Origin: an uncultured Candidatus Saccharibacteria bacterium
GTDB lineage: Bacteria > Patescibacteriota > Doudnabacteria > UBA920 > O2-02-FULL-48-8
Assembly: GCA_964605735.1 (NCBI GenBank)
Contig: CAZSDS010000001.1
Coordinates: 703,157-767,156 of the forward strand
DNA: 64,000 bases
Direction of reading: 5' to 3'
Part shown: positions 2,150 through 51,708 of the stretch, piece by piece
How positions within the stretch are numbered: the first letter of the stretch is position 1
How the letters are laid out: every line of letters starts with the position of its first letter
Made by a program: the position numbers and the translations under genes
The notes under the pieces: model-generated
What the model saw: the letters and a program-made list of their open reading frames with translations, nothing else
Database searches by the model: none
What the model was told of the DNA's origin: nothing

Positions 2150-2730
2150 ACCTGCATAAACCGCCGGCTTTAGCCGGCGTGTGCGTTTGAAGGCGTAGCC
2201 CTCTGTCACATAAACTAAAGTCACCACACCTTGGTAAGAAGGGAGGTGACTTTAATGTCTAATCGTCGGTTGTATCAACTCGACCATTGCACCTGGAGAT
2301 GTATCTACCACTTGGTTTGGACACCAAGATACCGGGGCCAGGTTCTTCAAGACAAGTATATCAAAGCAGAAGTAAAGCGAATATTCAAGCAGATATGCCA
2401 ATGGAAAGGCTTTGGAATTGAAGGTTGGCACATTGGTGATGAACACATCTATCTCATAGTAATCATTCCACCAAAGTATTCAGTTGCATACGCAACCCAG
2501 GTTCTCAAAGGTAAATCAAGCTCTTGGCTTAAGAAAAAGACAAAACAATTCCCACCAGGACCATTCTGGGCAAGGGGATACTTTGTCACAACCATGGGAC
2601 TAGATGAGCTTACGGTGAAAAACTATGTTGCCAACCAAAAGCACCACCAAAGACCCTTGCCACAACTGCCTTTTCCAGGCTAAGCCTGGATGATAAAAGC
2701 CACCAGCGTCAGCTGGTGGCTAGTTTACTT
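2150..2730 (+). mobile_element. IS200/IS605-family element carrying tnpA only
   Basis: A Y1 (HUH) transposase ORF is flanked by subterminal hairpins, CCGCCGGCTTTAGCCGGCG (2161-2179) and GCCACCAGCGTCAGCTGGTGGC (2699-2720). No tnpB is present. Confidence 0.55.
2255..2683 (+). CDS. tnpA: IS200-type Y1 transposase TnpA
   Basis: The HCTWRCIYHLVWTPRYR motif (HuH plus catalytic Tyr) is the hallmark of IS200 TnpA. A strong SD (GGGAGGTGA) lies 5 nt before the ATG at 2255. Length is about 142 aa. Confidence 0.8.
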   Translation: MSNRRLYQLDHCTWRCIYHLVWTPRYRGQVLQDKYIKAEVKRIFKQICQWKGFGIEGWHIGDEHIYLIVIIPPKYSVAYATQVLKGKSSSWLKKKTKQFPPGPFWARGYFVTTMGLDELTVKNYVANQKHHQRPLPQLPFPG

Positions 2731-2756: not shown

Positions 2757-3476
2757 TTATTTAACGCTGTTTTCTAGAGCTGTAAGTTCGTTGTATACCT
2801 GGAGGTTGTTGTAAACCCAGTGGTCTCCTGGTGGTTGCTTGTATAAACCATTCATCTGTTCAAAGTTCATTTGCGAATATTTCACCTGTGATTTTTTTGG
2901 AGCAGTGTTCAGGAAATGGTTCATGGCAACCACCCCTTCACCGAGGTTGTCGCCCATGTCCCAGAGGTCTGAGCCCCCTACTCCCCAGCAGTTGTTCAGG
3001 TGTTCGATGTAACGGCGGCACATAGTGCTTTCTGCATTTGAGAGCGCAAGAATTTTCTTCCAATTATTCTGTTGCAGGATTACATGAGTGTAGTCAGCCA
3101 GCGGTGAGCGTTTGGATTGCAGGTATTGTTTTAGAGCTGTGTTCATTTTCAGCTGGCGCTGAAGTTTGGCAACGGCCTGTTCGTGTCTTTCCTTGAATGA
3201 TTTTTCTTCTGCGCTCTCTTTCAGTTCGCGCATGAACTCGGTATGGTCCCCTGCTTCAAATACAAGCGGGTTGATGATGACAGGCTCAATTTCTGCAGCA
3301 ACTGATTTTTGCGGGAACAGCATAGGAGTAAGACTGAACAACAAAGCCGCAACCAATAATTTGGTGAATGACCCCATGTCCTCTATAGGCTGGGGAACAA
3401 TGTCTATGTGTTTTTTAACTGTTGGGGCTAAGACTTTTTTCGGGTTCTGTTTTTTGACGATTCTTATTGCGTCCAT
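2757..3476 (-). CDS. hypothetical membrane-anchored or secreted protein
   Basis: 239-aa ORF with an N-terminal hydrophobic segment (LLVAALLFSLTPMLF). No recognisable domain. Confidence 0.5.
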   Translation of the reverse strand: MDAIRIVKKQNPKKVLAPTVKKHIDIVPQPIEDMGSFTKLLVAALLFSLTPMLFPQKSVAAEIEPVIINPLVFEAGDHTEFMRELKESAEEKSFKERHEQAVAKLQRQLKMNTALKQYLQSKRSPLADYTHVILQQNNWKKILALSNAESTMCRRYIEHLNNCWGVGGSDLWDMGDNLGEGVVAMNHFLNTAPKKSQVKYSQMNFEQMNGLYKQPPGDHWVYNNLQVYNELTALENSVK

Positions 3477-3628: not shown

Positions 3629-3715
3629 TGGTGGGCAAGGAGGGAATCGAACCCTCAATCCCTTGCGGGCCCGGGATTTTAAGTCCCGTGCGTATGCCAG
3701 TTCCGCCACTTGCCC
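3629..3715 (-). tRNA. tRNA-Leu (anticodon UAA), type II with long variable arm
   Basis: Hand-folded from the reverse complement: GGGCAAG acceptor stem, anticodon loop CTTAAAA, variable arm CCC-GCAA-GGG, T-arm GAGGGTTCGATTCCCTC, encoded CCA. Confidence 0.8.
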
Positions 3716-3726
3716 CTTATTTCCTT

Positions 3727-3800
3727 TGGAGGTCTGGAGCGGAGTCGAACCGCTGTAAAAGCTTTTGCAGAGCTCTGCCTGACCGCTCGGCCACCAGACC
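3727..3800 (-). tRNA. tRNA-Cys (anticodon GCA)
   Basis: Hand-folded: acceptor GGTCTGG/CCAGACC, anticodon loop CTGCAAA, T-arm AGCGGTTCGACTCCGCT, encoded CCA. Confidence 0.7.
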
Positions 3801-3811
3801 AACTTCGGTAA

Positions 3812-4486
3812 TTATAACAATTTTCCCGACATTTTTCGAGTCTTCAAGAAAAGCTGGAAAACATCGTACTTTCGTTTTAAATACAAACCTGGTGAATTAA
3901 AATACATGTACTTATACAGTTTCAAGCTGTCTTTCGTAGAATAAGCTAGTTGATATGATCTACGGCTTTCGTATAGATGGGGTTTCATAATTCTAAGCTC
4001 TGTTTGGAGTATGTAGTCTAATTGTTCGAGAAATGGTTTACTCCCGCTTGTAAAAACTGTTCTCAATCTTCTTGGGTGACTATTCTTATATTCAATTAGC
4101 ACGGAGCCATCTCCATCGAAATAGCCACGAATAAAATGTTTTAGCTTTTGCTTAGATAGGGCTGGAAAAATCATGGAAAGCGATTTGTTAGGTCTTAGGC
4201 CAATTTTGAATAACTCATTGTAAAGCACATGATTTCCGATTCGTAAAAAATATCTTGCTTGTCGTGTCATGGTTGCAGGTAGAGTAACTATTCTATGCTC
4301 AGATTTAAGCGAGTTTTTTACAATTAAGATTAACTCTTTATCGATACTACTCGCTCTAATATATTTCCCTCTTAAATATGTAGCGTCCTCAAGGCTGCCA
4401 TCTGCATATAGATAACCTAGAATATAAGCTGATTCATTGGTTATTTTTGAAAAAAATTTTTCATTAACTCTATATTTTATGCCCAT
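3812..4486 (-). CDS. LAGLIDADG-family homing endonuclease (free-standing, two motifs)
   Basis: Two LAGLIDADG motifs (ILGYLYADGS and IRGYFDGDGS). The ORF is AT-rich and ends 11 bp from tRNA-Cys. Confidence 0.75.
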   Translation of the reverse strand: MGIKYRVNEKFFSKITNESAYILGYLYADGSLEDATYLRGKYIRASSIDKELILIVKNSLKSEHRIVTLPATMTRQARYFLRIGNHVLYNELFKIGLRPNKSLSMIFPALSKQKLKHFIRGYFDGDGSVLIEYKNSHPRRLRTVFTSGSKPFLEQLDYILQTELRIMKPHLYESRRSYQLAYSTKDSLKLYKYMYFNSPGLYLKRKYDVFQLFLKTRKMSGKLL

Positions 4487-5935: not shown

Positions 5936-5991
5936 AGGGGGTTAATTATCCCGCGCTGAAATTTTGCGGTCAATATCAACTCTGTGGATAG

Positions 5992-6363
5992 CTAACTTAG
6001 ATGACCAATCACTCCCGCTGATACAGGCATCACAAGCATAGTGTATAGCATTAAGCTGTAGACCTTAGCTGGGAGTTTAAGTCCGAGCCATTGGTTTCCG
6101 TAGTGAGACAGGCATGAGCCCAAGTATGCCAGCTCTTTTTGTTCAATTGCCCGGAGCCTGTTCTCCCAGACCGTGAACGGACATCCTTTGAATAGTTTCC
6201 AAGAAAACATGGTGGCGCCAAGCAAGACGCCGGCAATTATTGCGTAAAGATATGATGCGAAGATTGACGGGTAGAAAATTGCAAGTACGGGAGAACTTAT
6301 GGCTGATACTGCGAACACTGCAAATATCATAGTATGCAGATAGAGGACGTGTTGGGCTTTCAT
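5992..6363 (-). CDS. small integral membrane protein (possibly DUF2784-like)
   Basis: 123 aa with 3-4 hydrophobic helices and a CPFTVWE motif. Confidence 0.45.
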   Translation of the reverse strand: MKAQHVLYLHTMIFAVFAVSAISSPVLAIFYPSIFASYLYAIIAGVLLGATMFSWKLFKGCPFTVWENRLRAIEQKELAYLGSCLSHYGNQWLGLKLPAKVYSLMLYTMLVMPVSAGVIGHLS

Positions 6364-6403
6364 ATGTTGAGCTTAACAGATAAACATTAATATTCCTAAT
6401 TCC

Positions 6404-6793
6404 CTACTTTACTTTGAACCAGACCTCATCTTTGCTGTCTGGTTCGCCATTGTAGTTGCTCATTAATTCCTCACCTTTTTTGATGTCTCTGAGGGCGGTG
6501 AAGATCATAGCTTTTCGTTCAACGTCTTCGTCGTATTCTATGTTGGGCGTGTAGGAGTGGTTGTATAACGAGCCGAACCCAAGCACAATGGCCGGCTGGT
6601 ATTGCGTTGCCCAGGGGAAACAATAATCATCCAAGAGAGTTTTTCTTAAAGTCTTCTCCTGGCTTTTGGGAACAGCTATTACAGGGCAAACTTCGATCAC
6701 TTCACCCTTTTTGATGTCAGCTGTGGCGAACACTCCCCTGCCCTTTTTTCCTGTCTTTCTTACAATAATTTTGGTTGGTGGTTTTATGCGCAT
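6404..6793 (-). CDS. SET-domain protein (putative protein-lysine methyltransferase)
   Basis: GRGVFA...KGE N-SET core, the NHSYTPN (NHSC-like) motif, and a post-SET ELxxNY segment. Confidence 0.7.
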   Translation of the reverse strand: MRIKPPTKIIVRKTGKKGRGVFATADIKKGEVIEVCPVIAVPKSQEKTLRKTLLDDYCFPWATQYQPAIVLGFGSLYNHSYTPNIEYDEDVERKAMIFTALRDIKKGEELMSNYNGEPDSKDEVWFKVK

Positions 6794-6898
6794 AGAAGGA
6801 TTTTAGCAAAAAAATCGTTTATAAGGAATATTTTTAGCGTTCGATTCCCTTCCACATACTAAAGAAAAAACTTCCACCTGTTGGTGAAAGTCTTTTCT

Positions 6899-6972
6899 TG
6901 GAGCAGGTAGGGGGAATCGAACCCCCGCATCGTCCTTGGCAAGGACGTGTTCTACCACTAAACCATACCTGC
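6899..6972 (-). tRNA. tRNA-Gly (GCC)
   Basis: Hand-folded: acceptor GCAGGTA/TACCTGC, anticodon loop TTGCCAA, T-arm GGGGGTTCGATTCCCCC, CCA encoded. 74 nt. Confidence 0.8.
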
Positions 6973-45229: not shown

Positions 45230-46435
45230 TCAGTTTTGCGTCGTAGGAACGCAGTTACCGCTCGATTCGTTGAAGGTGCCGCGGAGCGTTCTGCTGCGCT
45301 TGGTGCTGTCCGCGGTGTAGAACCTTGATTCGTTCACCGGAATCTTGGGTGTCTCATCGTCGCCACGGTTGGCGACTTGATACACGGCCATGGATTTCGG
45401 CTTGACTCGTTCCGTAAAGCAGGCATCCTGCCCTTCCAGGGGAGTCACGAACGTAATCAAAGCGGGTGCATCTGAGTCAGCGGGAATTTTGCCGTCCCAG
45501 ATGTTGTTGACGTTGTTTGCCGTGTCCACGAAATTGCCGTTCATGTACACTCGAACCCTGCCCATGAACCGGTCAGGCCCTTGCGTGCGGAACGCGGCGA
45601 TGTAGTTCTCACCCATGAAATTGCGGATCTTGCGCGCCTGGTTGACTGAATAGAACCCATATGGGTTGTAACCATACTGGTATCCGTATGCCGCGCCGTA
45701 GTTCAGTCCGTAGCCATATTCAGCCGGGATAGTTTCCAGCGGCGTGCCGGGTTCAAGTCCGAGCGCCATGTTCCGAAAGTGCGTCATGTTAGTCATGTGC
45801 GCACGCGCCAGGGTCTGCGGCGATTCAAGTGCCGGATTTTTGTAGCGGATCGGCTGAACCAAACCCTGGTCCATTGCATCCAGAACAAAGTCGTTGACCA
45901 AGTCCTGGGGCATGACTTGCCGAGGTGCCGTTGGCGGTACACCGTACAAAGGCGGTGTGTAGGCAGGCGGCGTGGCCGGCGTGGCCGGCGTGGTTGGAGC
46001 AATGCTCTCTGCCCGACGCGTCACTTGCGGCGCGCTTGGTGCAGGGGAAATTGCGCCAGAGCGGTGGTGAAGTACCAGGGTGTTGCCCTGGAATTCGTGC
46101 GTGACGTTGTGCGGGCGCAGTGCCCTGAGCAACTTGTCCAGCACATTGCCGAGCGGTTCTTTGACAAATCCGCCCTTGAGCCTGGTTTCGTCCAAGACCC
46201 GTTCTTCTGTTCCGGCGCCCAGCACGTAACTGAATCCAGGTGCTTGCTGGGTGAGGCCGTCGAGGATTTCCCGCAGGCTCCTGTCCTGTCCGGCCGGCGG
46301 CGCATTCAGGCTCACAATCGAGTTGTACACGTTCCCGATGATCCTGGCCGGCTGCTGCGCCCCGGCGAACGCCGGTACGCTGAGCAAAACCAACAGGATC
46401 AGAAAAACGTTGTGCGCGGTTCTGATGCTCTTCAC
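45230..46435 (-). CDS. secreted Pro/Thr- and Tyr/Gly-rich hypothetical protein (start moved to GTG at 46435)
   Basis: GTG start 6 nt after AAGGAGG. The signal peptide KSIRTAHNVFLILLVLLSVPAFAGA is followed by APTTPATPATPPAYTPP and YGYGLNYGAAYGYQYGYNPYGFY low-complexity tracts. GC-rich by eye. Confidence 0.55.
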   Translation of the reverse strand: MKSIRTAHNVFLILLVLLSVPAFAGAQQPARIIGNVYNSIVSLNAPPAGQDRSLREILDGLTQQAPGFSYVLGAGTEERVLDETRLKGGFVKEPLGNVLDKLLRALRPHNVTHEFQGNTLVLHHRSGAISPAPSAPQVTRRAESIAPTTPATPATPPAYTPPLYGVPPTAPRQVMPQDLVNDFVLDAMDQGLVQPIRYKNPALESPQTLARAHMTNMTHFRNMALGLEPGTPLETIPAEYGYGLNYGAAYGYQYGYNPYGFYSVNQARKIRNFMGENYIAAFRTQGPDRFMGRVRVYMNGNFVDTANNVNNIWDGKIPADSDAPALITFVTPLEGQDACFTERVKPKSMAVYQVANRGDDETPKIPVNESRFYTADSTKRSRTLRGTFNESSGNCVPTTQN

Positions 46436-46644
46436 TGTCTTCCTCCTTGGAAGTGAAAATTGCTGATTGGACAATATCTGAAGTGGTGTAAATCGCGAAT
46501 TTATCGAGCAAGTCAAAATATGATTTTGACTTGCAATTATAGCAAAAAAAGAGCATTTTGTCAATGCTCTAGAAAGAACATCTAAAGACCTTTGCGCAGG
46601 CGATATTAACTACTCCAAAAGATTTTGAGAATGAATTAGACAAT

Positions 46645-46672
46645 AAAAAAGAAGGGCCTAAAGATCAGGCCC
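46645..46672 (-). terminator. intrinsic terminator for the minus-strand operon
   Basis: On the minus strand: GGGGCC-tgatcttta-GGCCC followed by TTCTTTTTTATT. Confidence 0.6.
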
Positions 46673-46699
46673 CTCGATGTTCAAGTCCGCAAGTTGCGG

Positions 46700-48556
46700 T
46701 TACTTGAACCGGTAGTAAAATCCTCCTTCCAGCGGAAACCCGTTCACGGCGATTTTAACCGTTGTGGTTGCCGACTGGATTGTAATTTCGTCCCCAGTCA
46801 TGGGATACGCGACACCGTCCACCAGGACGATGATTTGCATCAGGTTCCCACCCTCAACGAGTGGGCCGTGCTGTTGATATCCACGCAGGCCCATTGGTTG
46901 GCTGCACCTAACGTCAGAACCGATGACACGAGCCGCGTAGCCCGAGATCACCAGGGTCTGTCGTGTTGCTGGGATCACGCCGGTGTCGTGCCAGCGCACT
47001 TGTTCGGTTAAGGTCCCCAGATCCACGTAAGTGAGCGGAGACTTTGACGGCTGCGCCGACGCAAACACGTGTTCGGAGCGAGGTTTGTATTCCCGTTCCG
47101 TGCTGCCCATCCGCGAAGCTGCCCCCAGCTTCCTTTGGTACATGTCCAGTGAGTCGAACATATTGTACACACCAGCCACATACAGCATGATCGCAAGAAC
47201 CATGAGCGATCCGGCGGTAGCTGCCCTTTTTCTGTCGCGTGCCACCATTGCATAGACCCAAACGATGGCAATGAAAGTCAGGAGCAGGATGAGCGGGTAC
47301 TTTGGCATGTCAGACATGTTCATGATCTGGTTCCAGAAAGGCTGTCCAAAGATCAGCACTGCCAGAATCAGAGCCACTCCCATAATCTGTTCCACCAAAC
47401 CAAGCTTGTCGCCAGACGTTGCAGCCGAAGACGAGGTACTGGATTTGGTTGTTATAGTGGTTGCCGCTGAACCTGCTGTTGGATCACCCGCACCCGGCAC
47501 TGTTGGTCCAGTTGCGGCGGCGATTACAGGTGCTGGGCCCGCGATGTTTCTCCAAAACCAGATGACCGTGCCAATGAAGGCGAGGCCAAAAAGCATGAGG
47601 ATGATCCATCCAAGCGCCCAGACGAATCTGTTTTTCCAGGTCATTTCCTGCCATCCGGCCGGAACAAAGTTCCAGCTTTCTGACGAGGCAGAAGAGCTTG
47701 GATTAACAGTTCTAGCCCCCAGAATGCGGTCGCGTTTCTGAATCAGAAGGTCGAGTGCCTTCCTTTCTGATTCGGTTAATCCGCGCTGCATGTTTTTGTT
47801 TTGCAGTACAGCGATTTCGCCATACGTTTTGTTCAATTCAGTTTCAGCCTGATTTCTCAGGTTATCTTCGTGTTGGTTCGCGATTTCCCGATTCTTGTTC
47901 ACGAAGACAGCTTCTGACTGAATTTTCTGAACGTGGGCGAGATGGGGAAGCAGGCTTCCCAGAATCGCGAACAGCAGAATACCGCTGATCGCGTATCCGC
48001 TGAGCCTCATCCACTCGTTCCGGTTCAGTGTGATGATACCCCACGTAAACAGGGCCAGAATGATCATCCCAGAGAAGTACGGGCTTGGCCACTGAGGCAT
48101 TGCCGCCAGGATGAAGATGAACACCATCATGGAGGCGATGACCGCGAGAGCTGACCTGACCAGGAATTTCAGGAATACCAGGTCCTCGAAAGTGCCGGTG
48201 CCTGTGTATTCGATCATTCCCTTAGGGTGGGTAGGGAGGTGAAAGTGAATTTTGCCCCTGAGTTTGTTCAGGACAAGATCGACTCCCACTGCAAGAGCGG
48301 CGGCGTTGATGCTCCGTTCGCTCATCAAAAGCATGAGGATGATCGGCGGGTAAACAATCCCCAGCCACGGCATGATGCTGTGGCCGAAAGATCCCAGTGA
48401 ACCGATTGTCACGGTTGCGATCAGCCAGAGCAGTGAAACAAGAAGGAGGCTGAAGTACGATGCCATCAGCGCCCTCATTGCCGTTGCCGCCCAGCCGCCG
48501 ACTGTTCGGACGGCTTCATCCAGAAGCCGGAAGAAGTCCATGATCAAAGCACCCAT
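46700..48556 (-). CDS. large polytopic membrane protein with internal coiled-coil and Thr/Ser-rich linker (function unknown; VirB6/TrbL-like topology is a guess)
   Basis: 618 aa with 10 or more predicted TM segments, an ~100-aa coiled-coil insert and a C-terminal soluble domain. GC-rich by eye. Confidence 0.55.
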   Translation of the reverse strand: MGALIMDFFRLLDEAVRTVGGWAATAMRALMASYFSLLLVSLLWLIATVTIGSLGSFGHSIMPWLGIVYPPIILMLLMSERSINAAALAVGVDLVLNKLRGKIHFHLPTHPKGMIEYTGTGTFEDLVFLKFLVRSALAVIASMMVFIFILAAMPQWPSPYFSGMIILALFTWGIITLNRNEWMRLSGYAISGILLFAILGSLLPHLAHVQKIQSEAVFVNKNREIANQHEDNLRNQAETELNKTYGEIAVLQNKNMQRGLTESERKALDLLIQKRDRILGARTVNPSSSASSESWNFVPAGWQEMTWKNRFVWALGWIILMLFGLAFIGTVIWFWRNIAGPAPVIAAATGPTVPGAGDPTAGSAATTITTKSSTSSSAATSGDKLGLVEQIMGVALILAVLIFGQPFWNQIMNMSDMPKYPLILLLTFIAIVWVYAMVARDRKRAATAGSLMVLAIMLYVAGVYNMFDSLDMYQRKLGAASRMGSTEREYKPRSEHVFASAQPSKSPLTYVDLGTLTEQVRWHDTGVIPATRQTLVISGYAARVIGSDVRCSQPMGLRGYQQHGPLVEGGNLMQIIVLVDGVAYPMTGDEITIQSATTTVKIAVNGFPLEGGFYYRFK

Positions 48557-48579
48557 TGCTATCTCCTTGGTCTCAAAAA

Positions 48580-49242
48580 TTAGCGGTTGAGGAGAGCTGA
48601 CTTCAGCCGGCTCCAGAAGGTTACATGTCTGGCAGGATCCCAGTCGAAGCCAGTGTTTCTGCTTCGCCGCAGATCATCGGCAAGCTCGCGGAGAGTTGGA
48701 CTTCCTGTCTCTTCTGCCCAGCTTGTGATCAGGGCCTGGTTTTTTTCCATCCATACGGCAAAGCTTTTGCCCTTGCCGCTGGAGAAGAATCCAGTGATCT
48801 GACGATCGACCCGCTTCTTGTCCAGGTCCATGAACTTCACGTAGTTCTTCCAGTCGTCATCAGTCATGTTACTGAGTTTCGCCAGGACCTGAGCCGTCTT
48901 TTTCGGGTCGCCGCCCTTGCGGTCTCCTTCGACCTTGTATTGCGCCACCAGGATACGGAACCGGTTCTGCTGGTGGTCGTTCAGCTTACTGACCCTCTTC
49001 AGCAACGTGTGAAGATTTTCAATGCTGACGTTTTCGTCGCTGATGGCAGCGTTGAACAGCTGTTCATCAGCTACGTCGTTGGGCAGAAAGTCGTTGAAGA
49101 TGCTTTTGACCTTGTCCTTTACTTCAGGTCGGTTTACCAGCATCTTGAACATGCTTGCCAAGCCGCTTGTGAAGCTTTCTTCGGCGATAGCTTCACCGCC
49201 TCGCTTGGTCAAACCCCAAATCGTCTTCCAAAAGCTAGCCAT
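48580..49242 (-). CDS. hypothetical cytoplasmic protein (start at ATG 49242 after AAAGGAG)
   Basis: 221-aa ORF; SD 7 nt upstream. It lies 23 bp upstream of the 618-aa membrane protein. Confidence 0.5.
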   Translation of the reverse strand: MASFWKTIWGLTKRGGEAIAEESFTSGLASMFKMLVNRPEVKDKVKSIFNDFLPNDVADEQLFNAAISDENVSIENLHTLLKRVSKLNDHQQNRFRILVAQYKVEGDRKGGDPKKTAQVLAKLSNMTDDDWKNYVKFMDLDKKRVDRQITGFFSSGKGKSFAVWMEKNQALITSWAEETGSPTLRELADDLRRSRNTGFDWDPARHVTFWSRLKSALLNR

Positions 49243-49456
49243 TCGCACGCTCCTTTTTATCTTTGATTTTTCCCAAATTGTGAAACTGCAATCCGTTCGC
49301 CTAGAAAATTCCAGTCTGAAACAGTAAATAATAGCAGAAATTGACGATTTTGTCAAGAATACACAGTAAATAGCACAAATATCCGGTTAATTTAGGTTTA
49401 TGCTGGCGTTTTCATTAAATGTGGGCTTTGGTATAATTACGAGGCTTTAAGAAAAG

Positions 49457-49543
49457 GCCGGGGTGGTGAAATTGGCAGACACGCAAGGTTTAGGACCTTG
49501 TACCCGAAAGGGTGTGGAGGTTCAAGTCCTCTCCCCGGCACCA
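49457..49543 (+). tRNA. tRNA-Leu (UAG), type II
   Basis: Hand-folded: acceptor GCCGGGG/CCCCGGC, anticodon loop TTTAGGA, variable arm, T-arm GGAGGTTCAAGTCCTCT, CCA encoded. Confidence 0.8.
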
Positions 49544-49682
49544 AGAGCATAATAATATGTTATATTGCGGGGACTTGAACGGGCAGAAGTGAGGCAAGTT
49601 CGTAAGGAACGCAGCCAAACGATCGACAAACGTCCAGTGGACGTTTGGCGCTGCCCTGTAAAGAGCGCCAGCAGGCGACTGA

Positions 49683-49708
49683 AAGTCCTCTCCCCGGCAC
49701 CAAGAAGG
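49683..49708 (+). repeat. 23-bp direct repeat of the 3' end of tRNA-Leu(UAG) (att-like scar)
   Basis: AAGTCCTCTCCCCGGCACCAAGA at 49521-49546 is repeated at 49683-49708. The 137 bp between them contains a perfect 9-bp-stem hairpin, CAAACGTCC-agt-GGACGTTTG. Confidence 0.75.
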
Positions 49709-49809
49709 CGCAATAAGCACTTTGGTTTCCAATTGACAGCGTAAATGCTGTTCTCTAAAATTTTAGGACAACTTAATCAATTTAACCAACATTTTAACCA
49801 CCAAATATA

Positions 49810-51708
49810 ATGAATAGATTTGTAAGAAACATTTTGATTGTACTGGCAATTTTTGTGATAGTGGCTGCGGTGTTCAGTTTTGTAAATACTGACGACGCAA
49901 ATGTCGAACGCGTGACCATATCAGAAGTTGCTGAGCAGGCAAAGGCCGGGCAAATTGATCGTGTTGAAGTTGAAGAAGACCGCGTCTATGTATTTTTGAA
50001 AGACGGTACCCAGCAAACAGCAAATAAAGAAAGACAGGAATCGTTCCTCACGGTTTTGGAAACATATGGAGTGACGCAGGAACAGCTTTCAAGTTTCCGA
50101 GTGGACGTGCTTGACTCGTCAGGTTCATCCTTCCTGCTTTCTACGATCCTGCCTTTTGTGATACCATTCCTCTTCATCGCCGCATTCATATGGTTTTTAA
50201 TGCGACAAGTGCAAGGCTCAAACAACCGGGCAATGTCTTTTGGACAGTCCAATGCCAAAGTCATGGAGCAATCCGACCGCCGCAAGCGCGTAACATTTAA
50301 TGACGTCGCGGGCGTGAAGGAAGCCAAAGAAGAGCTGAAAGAAATAGTTGAGTTCTTAAAGTACCCGCAAAAATTCTTTAACCTTGGGGCGCGAATCCCC
50401 AAAGGTGTTTTGTTGCTTGGTCCTCCAGGCGTTGGGAAAACAATTATTGCCCGTGCCGTGGCAGGGGAGGCTAATGTCCCGTTCTTCCACATCTCAGGCT
50501 CTGAGTTCGTGGAAATGTTCGTTGGGGTTGGTGCTTCCCGTGTTCGTGATTTGTTCAAGAAGGCCAAGCGCAATGCTCCGTGTATCATTTTCGTGGATGA
50601 AATTGACGCAGTTGGAAGACAGCGAGGTGCCGGTCTTGGCGGCTCTCATGACGAACGCGAACAAACTTTGAACCAAATTCTCGTAGAGATGGATGGGTTT
50701 GACAACGAGACCAATGTCATTGTTATTGCCGCCACAAACCGTCCGGACGTTTTGGATCCAGCTTTAATGCGCCCTGGCCGATTCGACAGACAAGTCATTT
50801 TGGACCTGCCGGACATTTCTGACCGCGAGGCTATTTTGAAAGTCCATGCCAAAAACAAGCCTTTGTCCCAAAACGTTGATTTGCGCGCTCTGGCTGAAAG
50901 AACCCCAGGCTTCTCCGGTGCGGATCTCGCCAACTTGATGAACGAAGGAGCAATTCTGGCTGCACGCAAAAACAACAAGGAAATCGGGCAAATTGACCTG
51001 TTTGAAGCAATTGAGAAAGTAATGATCGGCCCTGAAAGGAAAAGCCATGTGCTGTCAAAGCGAGAAAAGGAAATCGCTGCCTGGCACGAGGCTGGGCACG
51101 CTCTGGTTGCCACAGTTCTGCCGCACGCAGATCCGGTGCACAAGGTTTCCATTGTTTCGCGCGGGCGGGCTGCAGGTTACACCATGAAAATCCCGACCGA
51201 AGACAAGAACCTGCACTCCAAATCAGAATTCCTGGCAGACCTGGCAGTGTCATTGGCTGGGCAGGCCACGGAAAAAATGATTTTTAACGAAATCACCACC
51301 GGCGCTTCAAACGACTTGAAAGTCGCCACCAACCTTGCCCGCAAACTAGTCACCACCTACGGCATGTCTGATCTGGGCCCTATGACCTTTGGCGACCAGC
51401 ACGAAATGATTTTCCTCGGCCGCGAAATTTCCGAACAGAAAAATTATTCGGAAAAAGTTGCTGCCCGCATTGACGAAGAAGTGGCTGGGTTCATTGACCG
51501 CGCCTACCAGACCGCAACTGATATTTTGATCAAGTACCACAATTACCTCAAAGCAATCGCTGACAAATTAATGGAAGTTGAAACTTTAGAGCGGGAAGAG
51601 TATGAGGCAATCGTCAAAGACATTATTCCGCAGGAAAAACTCTACAAGAGGTCGTCCAGCGAAATGGTCACGCCTCCAACACCTGAGTTCGGCTCCCAAA
51701 CTGCTTAA
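49810..51708 (+). CDS. ftsH: ATP-dependent zinc metalloprotease FtsH
   Basis: Two N-terminal TM helices, AAA+ Walker [12 protein letters not shown], and the zinc-binding HEAGHALV motif. Confidence 0.95.

Follow-up and report, generated by a model that had tools for sequence, protein, structure and literature searches.

Genomic islands and prophages that depend on tyrosine integrases reportedly use a sublocation at the T-loop of tRNA genes and are bordered there by attL/attR repeats, and cis-mobilizable elements (CIMEs) are said to be non-autonomous, att-flanked derivatives of integrative and conjugative elements (ICEs). Other systems act as single strands: the miniature hairpin elements REPIN/RAYT and those derived from IS200/IS605 (PATEs) are small, protein-less and hairpin-rich, and CTX-type filamentous phages have a folded single-stranded attP and are integrated by XerCD. 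Long terminal repeat (LTR) retroelements and miniature retrotransposons with terminal repeats (TRIMs) carry primer-binding sites complementary to tRNAs. According to passages in two accounts, the attC site of integrons is a folded single-strand site of 57-141 nt, the structure of which is conserved over its sequence (PMC3053210, PMC8618304). The locus described here combines features of several of these systems. It lies on a stretch of 64,000 nt (the window; contig CAZSDS010000001.1, positions 703,157 to 767,156) from an uncultured bacterium deposited as Candidatus Saccharibacteria and placed among the Doudnabacteria, in which the gene of tRNA-Leu(UAG) is followed by a 136-nt spacer and a second copy of its own 3' end. 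Judged by its sequence, this arrangement is a W-type member of a group of structured, protein-less elements of about 80-200 nt beside tRNA genes of the candidate phyla radiation (CPR; Patescibacteria), and with somewhat better than even confidence it is a non-autonomous, site-specific miniature insertion element that is moved in trans.

The repeat is exact over 23 nt (AAGTCCTCTCCCCGGCACCAAGA, 23/23 identical), with copies at 49524-49546 and 49683-49705, and consists of the final 20 nt of the tRNA, CCA included, and the flank AGA. The first-pass annotation had recognized the duplicated tRNA end, which is real, but had placed it at 49521-49546 and 49683-49708, 3 nt off, and had counted 23 instead of 20 nt of tRNA before the 3-nt flank and 137 instead of 136 nt of spacer. 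Among 100 dinucleotide-preserving shuffles of the window, none contained a chance match to the repeat, even with up to 3 mismatches allowed. Identity opens within the T-loop at position 57 (GGTTC|AAGTCC) and continues through the 3' end to three nucleotides past the CCA. The same arrangement is found in an independent Logan assembly (contig L001, SRR7082976), the sole contig found there being a filled site. The parts of the locus are as follows.

49457..49543, plus strand: tRNA-Leu(UAG) with encoded CCA (ARAGORN; Rfam tRNA, 53.9 bits)
49516-49520 and 49528-49532, plus strand: the two strands of its T-stem, with the T-loop TTCAAGT at 49521-49527 (ARAGORN)
49524..49546, plus strand: left direct repeat (DR-L), comprising T-loop positions 57-60, the 3' strand of the T-stem, the 3' strand of the acceptor stem, ACCA and AGA
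49547..49568, plus strand: hairpin A, an AT-rich imperfect palindrome, GCATAATAATATGTTATATTGC
49568..49580, plus strand: internal antisense segment (IR), CGGGGACTTGAAC, from the inverted-repeat search (10/10 match)
49581..49656, plus strand: core helix P2, GGGCAG (49581-49586) with CTGCCC (49651-49656), from the fold and the alignment of W-type elements
49665..49682, plus strand: P3 hairpin GCGCC-AGCA-GGCG, then the conserved right end (A)CTGA, which abuts the second repeat
49683..49705, plus strand: right direct repeat (DR-R), the displaced original tRNA 3' end, with the native flank AGGCGC... and the promoter of ftsH after it
49733..49761, plus strand: ftsH promoter TTGACA-17-TAAAAT, outside the element and marking the native downstream flank

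The tRNA itself is intact, and DR-L is its working 3' end. Downstream follow ftsH, an open reading frame (ORF) of 312 amino acids (aa), tRNA-Val(GAC) and RNase III, and the order tRNA-Leu(UAG), ftsH, ORF, tRNA-Val is conserved among relatives. Related Doudnabacteria-like genomes have an empty site at this tRNA-Leu (L109, L325, L003, L028, L002 and L004), where the gap between tRNA and ftsH, free of any duplicate, amounts to 94 nt in L003 and 88 nt in L028, and the ftsH promoter, which in the window lies 31 nt past the second CCA, lies 32 nt (L003) or 27 nt (L028) past the single CCA. In L109, which has the same T-arm as the window, the tRNA-Leu leads directly into ...CCAAATAGGCGCC, and the junction reads ...GGCACCAAATAGGCGCCC...; its counterpart in the window is ...GGCACCAAGA, ending in CCAAGA on the left side, then the 136 nt and the repeat, then AGGCGCAAT. 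As the flank after DR-R (AGGCGC...) matches that of the L109 empty site and hence is native, DR-R is the displaced original end, and DR-L arrived with the insert. The reciprocal case exists as well: tRNA-Val(GAC) is occupied by an element in L109 and unoccupied in the window, and the flanks downstream of it are homologous. Filled sites at the tRNA-Leu locus are found in L326 (a full W-type element) and L323 (a full W-type element plus a truncated second unit), while L327 holds a truncated element and L322 a 42-nt mini version that has retained the IR and the right end. The FtsH of these relatives is 87% (L322, L323), 84% (L325) or 83% (L109, L326, L327) identical to that of the window. These sites demonstrate that the window repeat brackets an insertion that is precise and polymorphic among relatives. 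The likeness to attL/attR repeats that had been proposed is thereby borne out, since the repeat spans the tRNA from the T-loop to beyond the 3' end, its first copy makes the tRNA complete and the flank matches an empty site. A locus that is empty, full, truncated or tandem among relatives also fits the proposal that tRNA-Leu(UAG) is a recombination hotspot. The suggested comparison of occupied and empty sites yielded both, but the filled sites hold no islands of kilobase scale.

What sets the insert apart from an ordinary att-flanked segment is its IR, of which the part GGACTTGAAC is the exact reverse complement of GTTCAAGTCC, that is of T-loop and T-stem, and the CGGGG complements CCCCG of the acceptor strand. 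The IR is predicted to form helix P1 with DR-R (GGGGACTT:AAGTCCTC), and alternatively it may pair with DR-L. After the repeat, the element begins with GCATAATAA... and IR-GGGCAG, and it ends with ...CTGA; within helix P2 lie a conserved AAGTGAGGCAAG and two hairpins, a small one and CAAACGTCC-AGT-GGACGTTTG (49627-49647). Spacer and DR-R together fold better than shuffled sequences (RNA z = -2.6), and with the T-arm included the single-stranded DNA folds at -38.9 kcal/mol in the top strand (z = -4.3) and at -34.8 kcal/mol in the bottom strand (z = -3.0). The spacer thus is as highly structured as the first-pass annotation had it, and the perfect hairpin that it pointed out is the one inside P2; GGCGCT and AGCGCC, which it had listed as a pair, both occur, although the conserved fold assigns them to separate helices.

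Full W-type elements are present in the window, L323, L326 and L125, the spacers of the homologues being about 111-198 nt long. Their plan is IR, GAA(C), GGGCAG, [A/C]AGTGAG(G)CAAG, hairpins, CGCTGCCC, the P3 hairpin and CTGA|AAGTCC. When these four elements are aligned and a consensus fold is drawn, P2 does not vary, paired substitutions within the inner hairpin compensate each other (CGTCC:GGACG, CGTAC:GTACG, CATCC:GGATG), and the P3 hairpins are of unrelated sequence; the right ends read GACACACC-TACA-GGTGTGTC-TGA in L323, ...GCGATTGA in L326 and ...GTGCTGA in L322. Within this single tRNA-Leu locus the IR follows the T-loop wherever the latter differs (GGACTTG/CAAGTCC, GGAATTG/CAATTCC, GGAGTTG/CAACTCC).

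The same anatomy occurs beside other tRNAs. A metagenome scan with the 20-mer of the repeat returned at least 120 loci, a sample biased to this tRNA end, and 12 among the 120 loci listed have this anatomy with spacings of 101-159 nt. In all DNA gathered, the 3' end recurs 79-146 nt downstream for about 18 of 268 tRNAs and at 414 nt for one more, and tRNA-Gly, Val, Lys, Cys and Leu(UAA) are among them. The spacers cannot be aligned as a whole, but they have a common plan of hairpin, IR, structured core and second repeat, in which a hairpin is found at the position of hairpin A in every family member without conservation of its sequence. The IR is the reverse complement of the T-loop, the 3' strand of the T-stem and sometimes the acceptor strand of its own tRNA, as in the following cases.

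tRNA-Val: IR AGGGATTGAA
tRNA-Cys: IR GCGGAATTGAA
tRNA-Leu(UAA): IR GGACTCGAAC
tRNA-Lys: IR GTGAGGGATTCGAA
tRNA-Leu(UAG) of L140: IR CGGGGAGAGGACTTGAA (17 nt)

Among 246 tRNAs, IR and repeat occur together far beyond chance (Fisher p = 6.6e-8). A second subfamily, type A, has the invariant motifs GAA.G.CGGA, GAG.CGGGGTCG and GTGACC and a predicted fold with a three-way junction, in which the IR and the second repeat pair to give P1, P2 is G-N-C/G-N'-C with C-G, G-C, U-A or A-U as the middle pair, a GGA/GA internal loop and a variable hairpin, and P3 is GGUCGC...GUGACC and abuts the repeat. The covariance model R1 of this type finds 18 copies beside tRNA-Lys, Leu, Val and Gly at a cut-off of E < 1e-4, with E-values that are rough owing to a shortened calibration and with several matches being orthologous copies from related genomes (L124, L130, L147-L149). 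In the alignment of the 18 copies, 91% of the cells are paired and 18 of the 23 pairs have changed on both sides, and the covariation score, from an alignment fitted to R1 itself, is 0.479, as compared with 0.165 on shuffling (0/500) and 0.04-0.10 for slid controls. Even at E = 10 there is no Rfam match for type-A elements. Conserved G-U/G-T pairs in P3 and P1 let only the tRNA-sense strand fold well, which shows that the fold of one strand matters, and RNA and single-stranded DNA are equally compatible with these data.

The ends of the elements are as orderly as their folds. The right junction is precise and conserved in each subtype, GTGAC|C in type A and CTGA|A in the W-type, and the repeat always starts in the T-loop, with the junction between positions 53 and 57 depending on the subtype. 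Units are found in tandem at three loci, L323, L169 and L125, the last of which has a W-type unit with a type-A unit following it, and the truncated second unit in L323 explains repeats that run about 20 nt beyond the CCA. A nearly identical core follows tRNA-Leu(UAA) in L123 and tRNA-Lys in L169, each with its own matching IR. The second repeat is less uniform, being split by a 21-nt hairpin in L124; the idea that the second repeat simply decays while the IR stays intact was dropped as too simple for such a case.

Several further sites stand near these elements in one respect or another. At 5866-6240 of L169 there is a 112-nt unit that opens with the 3' end of tRNA-Leu(UAA) and is present in three tandem copies (a 267-nt self-overlapping repeat), and it has no obvious T-loop antisense motif. 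On the minus strand of the window, the gene of tRNA-Gly(GCC) (6899-6972) is followed by a terminator-like hairpin and then, at 6839-6855, by GTGGAAGGGAATCGAAC, a near reverse complement of T-loop, T-stem and acceptor strand of this tRNA with a perfect core of 11 nt; there is neither a structured core nor a second repeat, and together with the terminator the site forms a long imperfect palindrome. By its sequence it looks like an antisense-only relative or a remnant of the same kind of element. In L130 (2780-3300, minus strand) there is a patchwork of tRNA pieces with a repeated 116-nt unit in which two-thirds of tRNA-Leu(UAA), from its 5' side, are fused to a T-arm and 3' end like those of tRNA-Cys, and Rfam reports this chimera as a "tRNA" of 39 bits that has an insertion of 28 nt. 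Such a patchwork apparently testifies to recombination at the T-arms within tRNA clusters of CPR bacteria.

In the reading favoured here, the insertion placed a unit of 159 bp in the T-loop of tRNA-Leu(UAG), a unit composed of a copy of the tRNA 3' end, a hairpin, the antisense segment and a multi-helix core that ends in CTGA. Its own copy of the 3' end completes the tRNA, and the original end, shifted by 159 bp, persists downstream as the second repeat. The mobilising enzyme would be encoded elsewhere and act in trans, and its likely substrate would be a folded single strand, in which IR and repeat rebuild the duplex tRNA target beside the conserved element-specific helix, the latter being stacked on the rebuilt duplex opposite the crossover point. 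A circle or tandem junction would then read ...GGCGACTGA|AAGTCCTCTCCCCGGCACCAAGA|GCATAATAA. Mobility in trans, the kind of enzyme, and DNA rather than RNA as the folded strand are what we infer here, and the folded strand as substrate is put forward as a hypothesis, which would cover four things at once: the need for an intrastrand complement, the covariation, the strand bias and the attC-like size. The IR would covary with the tRNA because strand exchange tests homology. It is possible, although we would give it somewhat less than an even chance, that these elements constitute an undescribed class of protein-less cassettes of 80-200 nt in the T-loops of tRNA genes, with a base-paired and self-contained attachment site, an unlinked recombinase, and the abilities to be retargeted and to build arrays; a search of open-access literature text found no description of such elements. 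If mobile, they would count among the smallest known insertion elements with site specificity, with the target spelled by base-pairing inside the element, which would bear on the evolution of att sites and on tRNA genes as hotspots, and might offer a compact programmable insertion module.

Several points weigh against a mobile element. The membership of the window element in its family rests on three or four W-type homologues, and the type-A model R1 gives it 18.4 bits via P1, GAA and the repeat alone, for which reason it is not classed as type A. The loci were chosen by the repeat's own 20-mer, so that their frequencies are not an unbiased census. Copies within one contig have diverged and give no sign of a recent burst. 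A simple recombinase model fails to explain how the IR is re-specified for a new tRNA, which the folded-strand or a guide idea would explain, and a conserved structure with G-U pairs is equally expected of a functional RNA. There is also the matter of the enzyme. Insertion by a tyrosine integrase, to which the first-pass annotation had attributed the repeat, is supported by the att-like footprint, but the search for an integrase that it suggested returned no tyrosine integrase, Phage_integrase domain or box-II motif among the 58 ORFs of the window, and the attribution stays inferential. Among the 115 ORFs that flank element-bearing loci, there is no recurrent recombinase, transposase or reverse transcriptase. 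Viral, phage and plasmid collections, and the search for kilobase-scale pairs of tRNA repeats, yielded neither an autonomous parent nor a phage-borne copy: four patterns derived from the window had 0 matches in viral contigs, INPHARED phages had none, and PLSDB plasmids had a chance 27-nt match only. The 14-mer GAGGCGGGGTCGCG had 120 matches in viral contigs, mostly random GC-rich sequence, and only L207 was a true type-A element.

L207 (IMG/VR contig IMGVR_UViG_3300033463_005745) has two type-A units at 2837-3189 (94.5 and 30.5 bits) near its end, with only tRNA fragments (CAAATCCCTCCC...) and no intact tRNA nearby and with the IR of one unit split by a hairpin. Although labelled as viral, its neighbouring genes look host-like, as judged by eye from the translations (CysE-like, GalE-like, cytidine deaminase). 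The window itself encodes two enzymes of interest, neither of which is linked to the elements. An IS200-like Y1 (HUH) transposase (2231-2683, plus strand; PF01797, E = 7e-28) appears to belong to an intact IS200-type element, is flanked by the hairpins CGCCGGC-TTTA-GCCGGCG and GCCACCAGC-GTCA-GCTGGTGGC (2150-2190 and 2675-2725) and has no homologues at the other loci gathered. A free-standing LAGLIDADG-type ORF (3812-4486, minus strand; PF14528, E = 5e-12) immediately upstream of the pair tRNA-Cys (3727-3800) and tRNA-Leu(UAA) (3629-3715) is a possible homing-endonuclease gene at a tRNA cluster. In a related lineage, the FtsH homologue P0089 (1066 aa) has precomputed LAGLIDADG (PF14528) and intein-splicing (PF14890) domains, which points to an intein within ftsH. 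The only cargo-bearing relative of the elements was found in L121, where, at about 5973-6422, an 18-nt direct repeat of the 3' end of tRNA-Pro(UGG) brackets a 414-bp cassette that encodes a GIY-YIG nuclease of 91 aa (PF01541, E = 4.6e-16), with terminal inverted repeats of 15 nt (CTTCGACAAGCTCAG and CTGAGCTTGTCGAAG) and a short antisense segment, GTAGCTGG, near the right end. This cassette is a possible cousin of the mini-elements, either as a carrier of cargo or as an autonomous form. A link to IS200/IS605 or RAYT was considered and rejected, as there is no shared hairpin and no co-occurrence with the Y1 transposase, and so were a casposon or another transposon with terminal inverted repeats, which the small elements lack. 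A T-loop intron that is spliced to the second copy was rejected likewise, because the first copy is the intact one, breaks or truncations affect the second copy at other loci (L124, L100, L327), and there is no match to a model of an intron or ribozyme.

The explanation that comes next after a mobile element is a functional structured RNA, which is unlikely overall but fits the data almost as well, and the two can coexist. The element would be a tRNA-trailer (spacer) RNA, made from the tRNA promoter, with the IR pairing to the 3' half of the tRNA or to the decoy copy, and the repeat would be there as a sequence that the RNA requires; such an RNA might serve in the maturation or quality control of tRNAs, act as a sponge of tRNA fragments, or be a mimic of the acceptor/T-arm minihelix that carries ...ACCA. 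A sigma-70-like promoter is predicted upstream of the tRNA (49409..49437, plus strand; TTTTCA-17-TATAAT with an upstream TG; promoter scan), its -10 region is conserved in relatives, and no terminator-like site is predicted in 49200-49900, so that it would transcribe the tRNA and the element too. The strongly conserved fold, the compensatory changes and the G-U pairs that favour the tRNA-sense strand all suit an RNA, as does the fact that the elements always lie on the strand of the tRNA and just downstream, often inside tRNA clusters, and the failure to find a mobility enzyme among the window and flanking ORFs speaks for it as well. The copy in L100 ends in a U9 run, and its IR is fully complementary to the acceptor strand of the tRNA even though its second repeat lacks that part. 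However, a trailer RNA leaves unexplained the precise empty sites beside intact tRNAs of close relatives, the reciprocal occupancy of two tRNA loci, and the tandem and truncated units with repeats that extend 20 nt and more past the CCA. Moreover, some of the hairpins after tRNAs are terminator-like, such as that at the tRNA-Gly site of the window, and would halt transcription before the IR, and the Rfam covariance search of the spacer, which had been proposed at the outset, matched no family. If it is an RNA nevertheless, it would represent a family of structured non-coding RNAs that is linked to tRNAs and widespread in CPR bacteria, organisms with minimal genomes and a little-known RNA biology, and a conserved trailer RNA that pairs with the 3' half of its own tRNA would likewise be new.

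A large element, such as a phage or an ICE, that was integrated at the T-loop by a tyrosine integrase and then almost entirely deleted was one of two possibilities offered by the first-pass annotation, and it is improbable. A repeat with its start in the T-loop that makes the tRNA whole again is the footprint classically left by an integrase, relatives have empty sites, and deletion derivatives do exist at the locus (the 42-nt spacer of L322 and the truncated copy of L327). But independent genomes share the architecture and the conserved helices in spacers of similar size, as the elements of L323, L326 and L125 demonstrate, and over the 268 tRNAs the duplicates lie at the short distances given above and never at kilobase scale, even though 138 of these tRNAs have at least 2 kb of downstream sequence. 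The 136-nt spacer contains no protein-coding fragments, and phage, plasmid and viral collections hold nothing similar to it. The second possibility then offered, a very small non-autonomous element, is the one that the data favour.

Slightly more doubtful still is a by-product of replication or repair, generated by fold-back (snap-back) synthesis at the hairpin that follows the tRNA or by a double-strand break that a homing endonuclease had made in the gene, either of which would copy the tRNA 3' end first in inverted and then in direct orientation, and spread solely by homologous recombination between orthologous loci. Such an origin could be seen in the long imperfect palindrome that the tRNA 3' end, hairpin A and IR form together, in the antisense-only case after tRNA-Gly(GCC), in the tRNA-Pro repeat around the GIY-YIG cassette of L121, in the LAGLIDADG ORF beside tRNA-Cys and in the chimeric tRNAs of L130 that are broken at T-arms. 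Yet conserved cores, namely that of type A and GGGCAG...AGTGAG...CTGCCC of the W-type, stand beside different tRNA species in different genomes, up to the near-identical core of L123 and L169, and shared cores each with a matching IR are not expected from independent local accidents.

Finally, a degenerate tandem tRNA gene or a miniature transfer-messenger RNA (tmRNA) can be dismissed with near certainty, for although the second copy ends in ACCA, Rfam gives a permuted tmRNA match (11 bits, E = 5.5, with a gathering score of 47, tRNA being the only family otherwise reported for the region) and a short frame GCC AAA CGA ... CUG UAA (49613-49660, plus strand) translates into the superficially tag-like AKRSTNVQWTFGAAL*, ARAGORN finds neither a tRNA nor a tmRNA at 49547-49705, there is no 5' half, T-stem 5' strand, D arm or anticodon arm before the second copy, its 5' partner is antisense to the T-loop, which is impossible from a sense duplicate, acceptor pairing is imperfect and has no G3-U70, and the frame is not conserved in L323, L326 and L125. 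The deleted island, the repair by-product, the second tRNA and the tmRNA are each less well supported than a mobile element or a trailer RNA. Under either of the latter two, the elements yield false calls of integrated islands and spurious ORFs beside tRNA genes, and the type-A covariance model can be used for annotating them.

On the 5' side of tRNA-Leu the window has three large ORFs of 444, 618 and 258 aa (45230-49356, minus strand) with no Pfam matches and essentially no counterparts at the syntenic position in relatives, the only match being one of 23% for the 618-aa ORF in L109, which marks this side as an apparently fast-evolving or variable region. Before them lies an array of five small paralogues of a type IV secretion system pilin (PF18895; 42891-45143, plus strand) that is typical of CPR bacteria. 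These paralogues and the relatives of its FtsH assign the window to the CPR, near the Doudnabacteria.

In comparison with known systems, the features that define the described families were sought and not found here, among them an integrase, the GTTRRRY core, an IntI platform, a parent element, and similar end hairpins that lack a duplication, and each family shares a different part of the arrangement. Small hairpin elements of the REPIN and PATE kind resemble it in being protein-less, and an IS200-like Y1 transposase gene even is present in the window, but they make no target duplication, carry similar hairpins at both ends and are not tRNA-specific, whereas the end hairpins of the window element are unrelated in sequence, there is a 23-nt duplication, the hairpins of the Y1 element differ from those of the mini-element, and no Y1 transposase is found near the other element-bearing loci. 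LTR retroelements and TRIMs have the same order of direct repeat, segment that is the complement of roughly the final 10-22 nt of a tRNA, short internal region and direct repeat, but here the repeat is the tRNA end itself, and no reverse transcriptase or polypurine tract was found, so that the likeness is an analogy only. Islands at T-loop att sites agree in the repeat that runs from the T-loop to or past the 3' end, in the restoration of the tRNA by the element's copy with the native end at the far side, in empty sites of relatives and in tandem accretion. The window element differs from them in its 136 bp without genes, integrase or an autonomous partner that could be found, and in its internal antisense copy of the target and conserved single-strand fold, neither of which a duplex att site needs. 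CIMEs likewise have att-like flanking repeats, no recombination genes of their own and a presumed mobilisation in trans, but they are kilobases long and recognisable as deletion derivatives that share their att sites with a known ICE, whereas the mini-elements, at 80-200 nt, have a conserved fold of their own and no known parent. Two things expected of a non-autonomous element were found nonetheless, namely related copies at other sites and in other genomes (four of the W-type and 18 of type A) and flanking att-like repeats that enclose no recombination genes.

The folded sites come closest in architecture. Integron cassettes with their attC, as the cited passages describe them, have the same order of core site, cargo, inverse core site, structured region and core site, and they build arrays beside one fixed site and fold in a strand-specific manner. 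The differences are that the T-loop GTTCAAG, with a C at position 4, does not fit the GTTRRRY core, that the 64-kb window has no IntI gene or attI-Pc platform, that the repeats of the mini-elements measure 18-46 nt as compared with 6-7 nt, and that there is a three-way junction in place of a simple bulged hairpin, with usually only a hairpin as cargo. The attP of CTX-type phages is similar in that two inverted half-sites, separated by about 90 nt of the same strand, pair and thereby mimic the duplex target, and in that the enzyme is host-encoded and unlinked, while its target is dif and not a tRNA and a whole phage genome is integrated, there being no phage here. A predicted helix between IR and repeat, with a conserved helix stacked on it, is present in the mini-elements and covaries, and as folded DNA it might correspond to the pairing of inverse core and core sites in attC.

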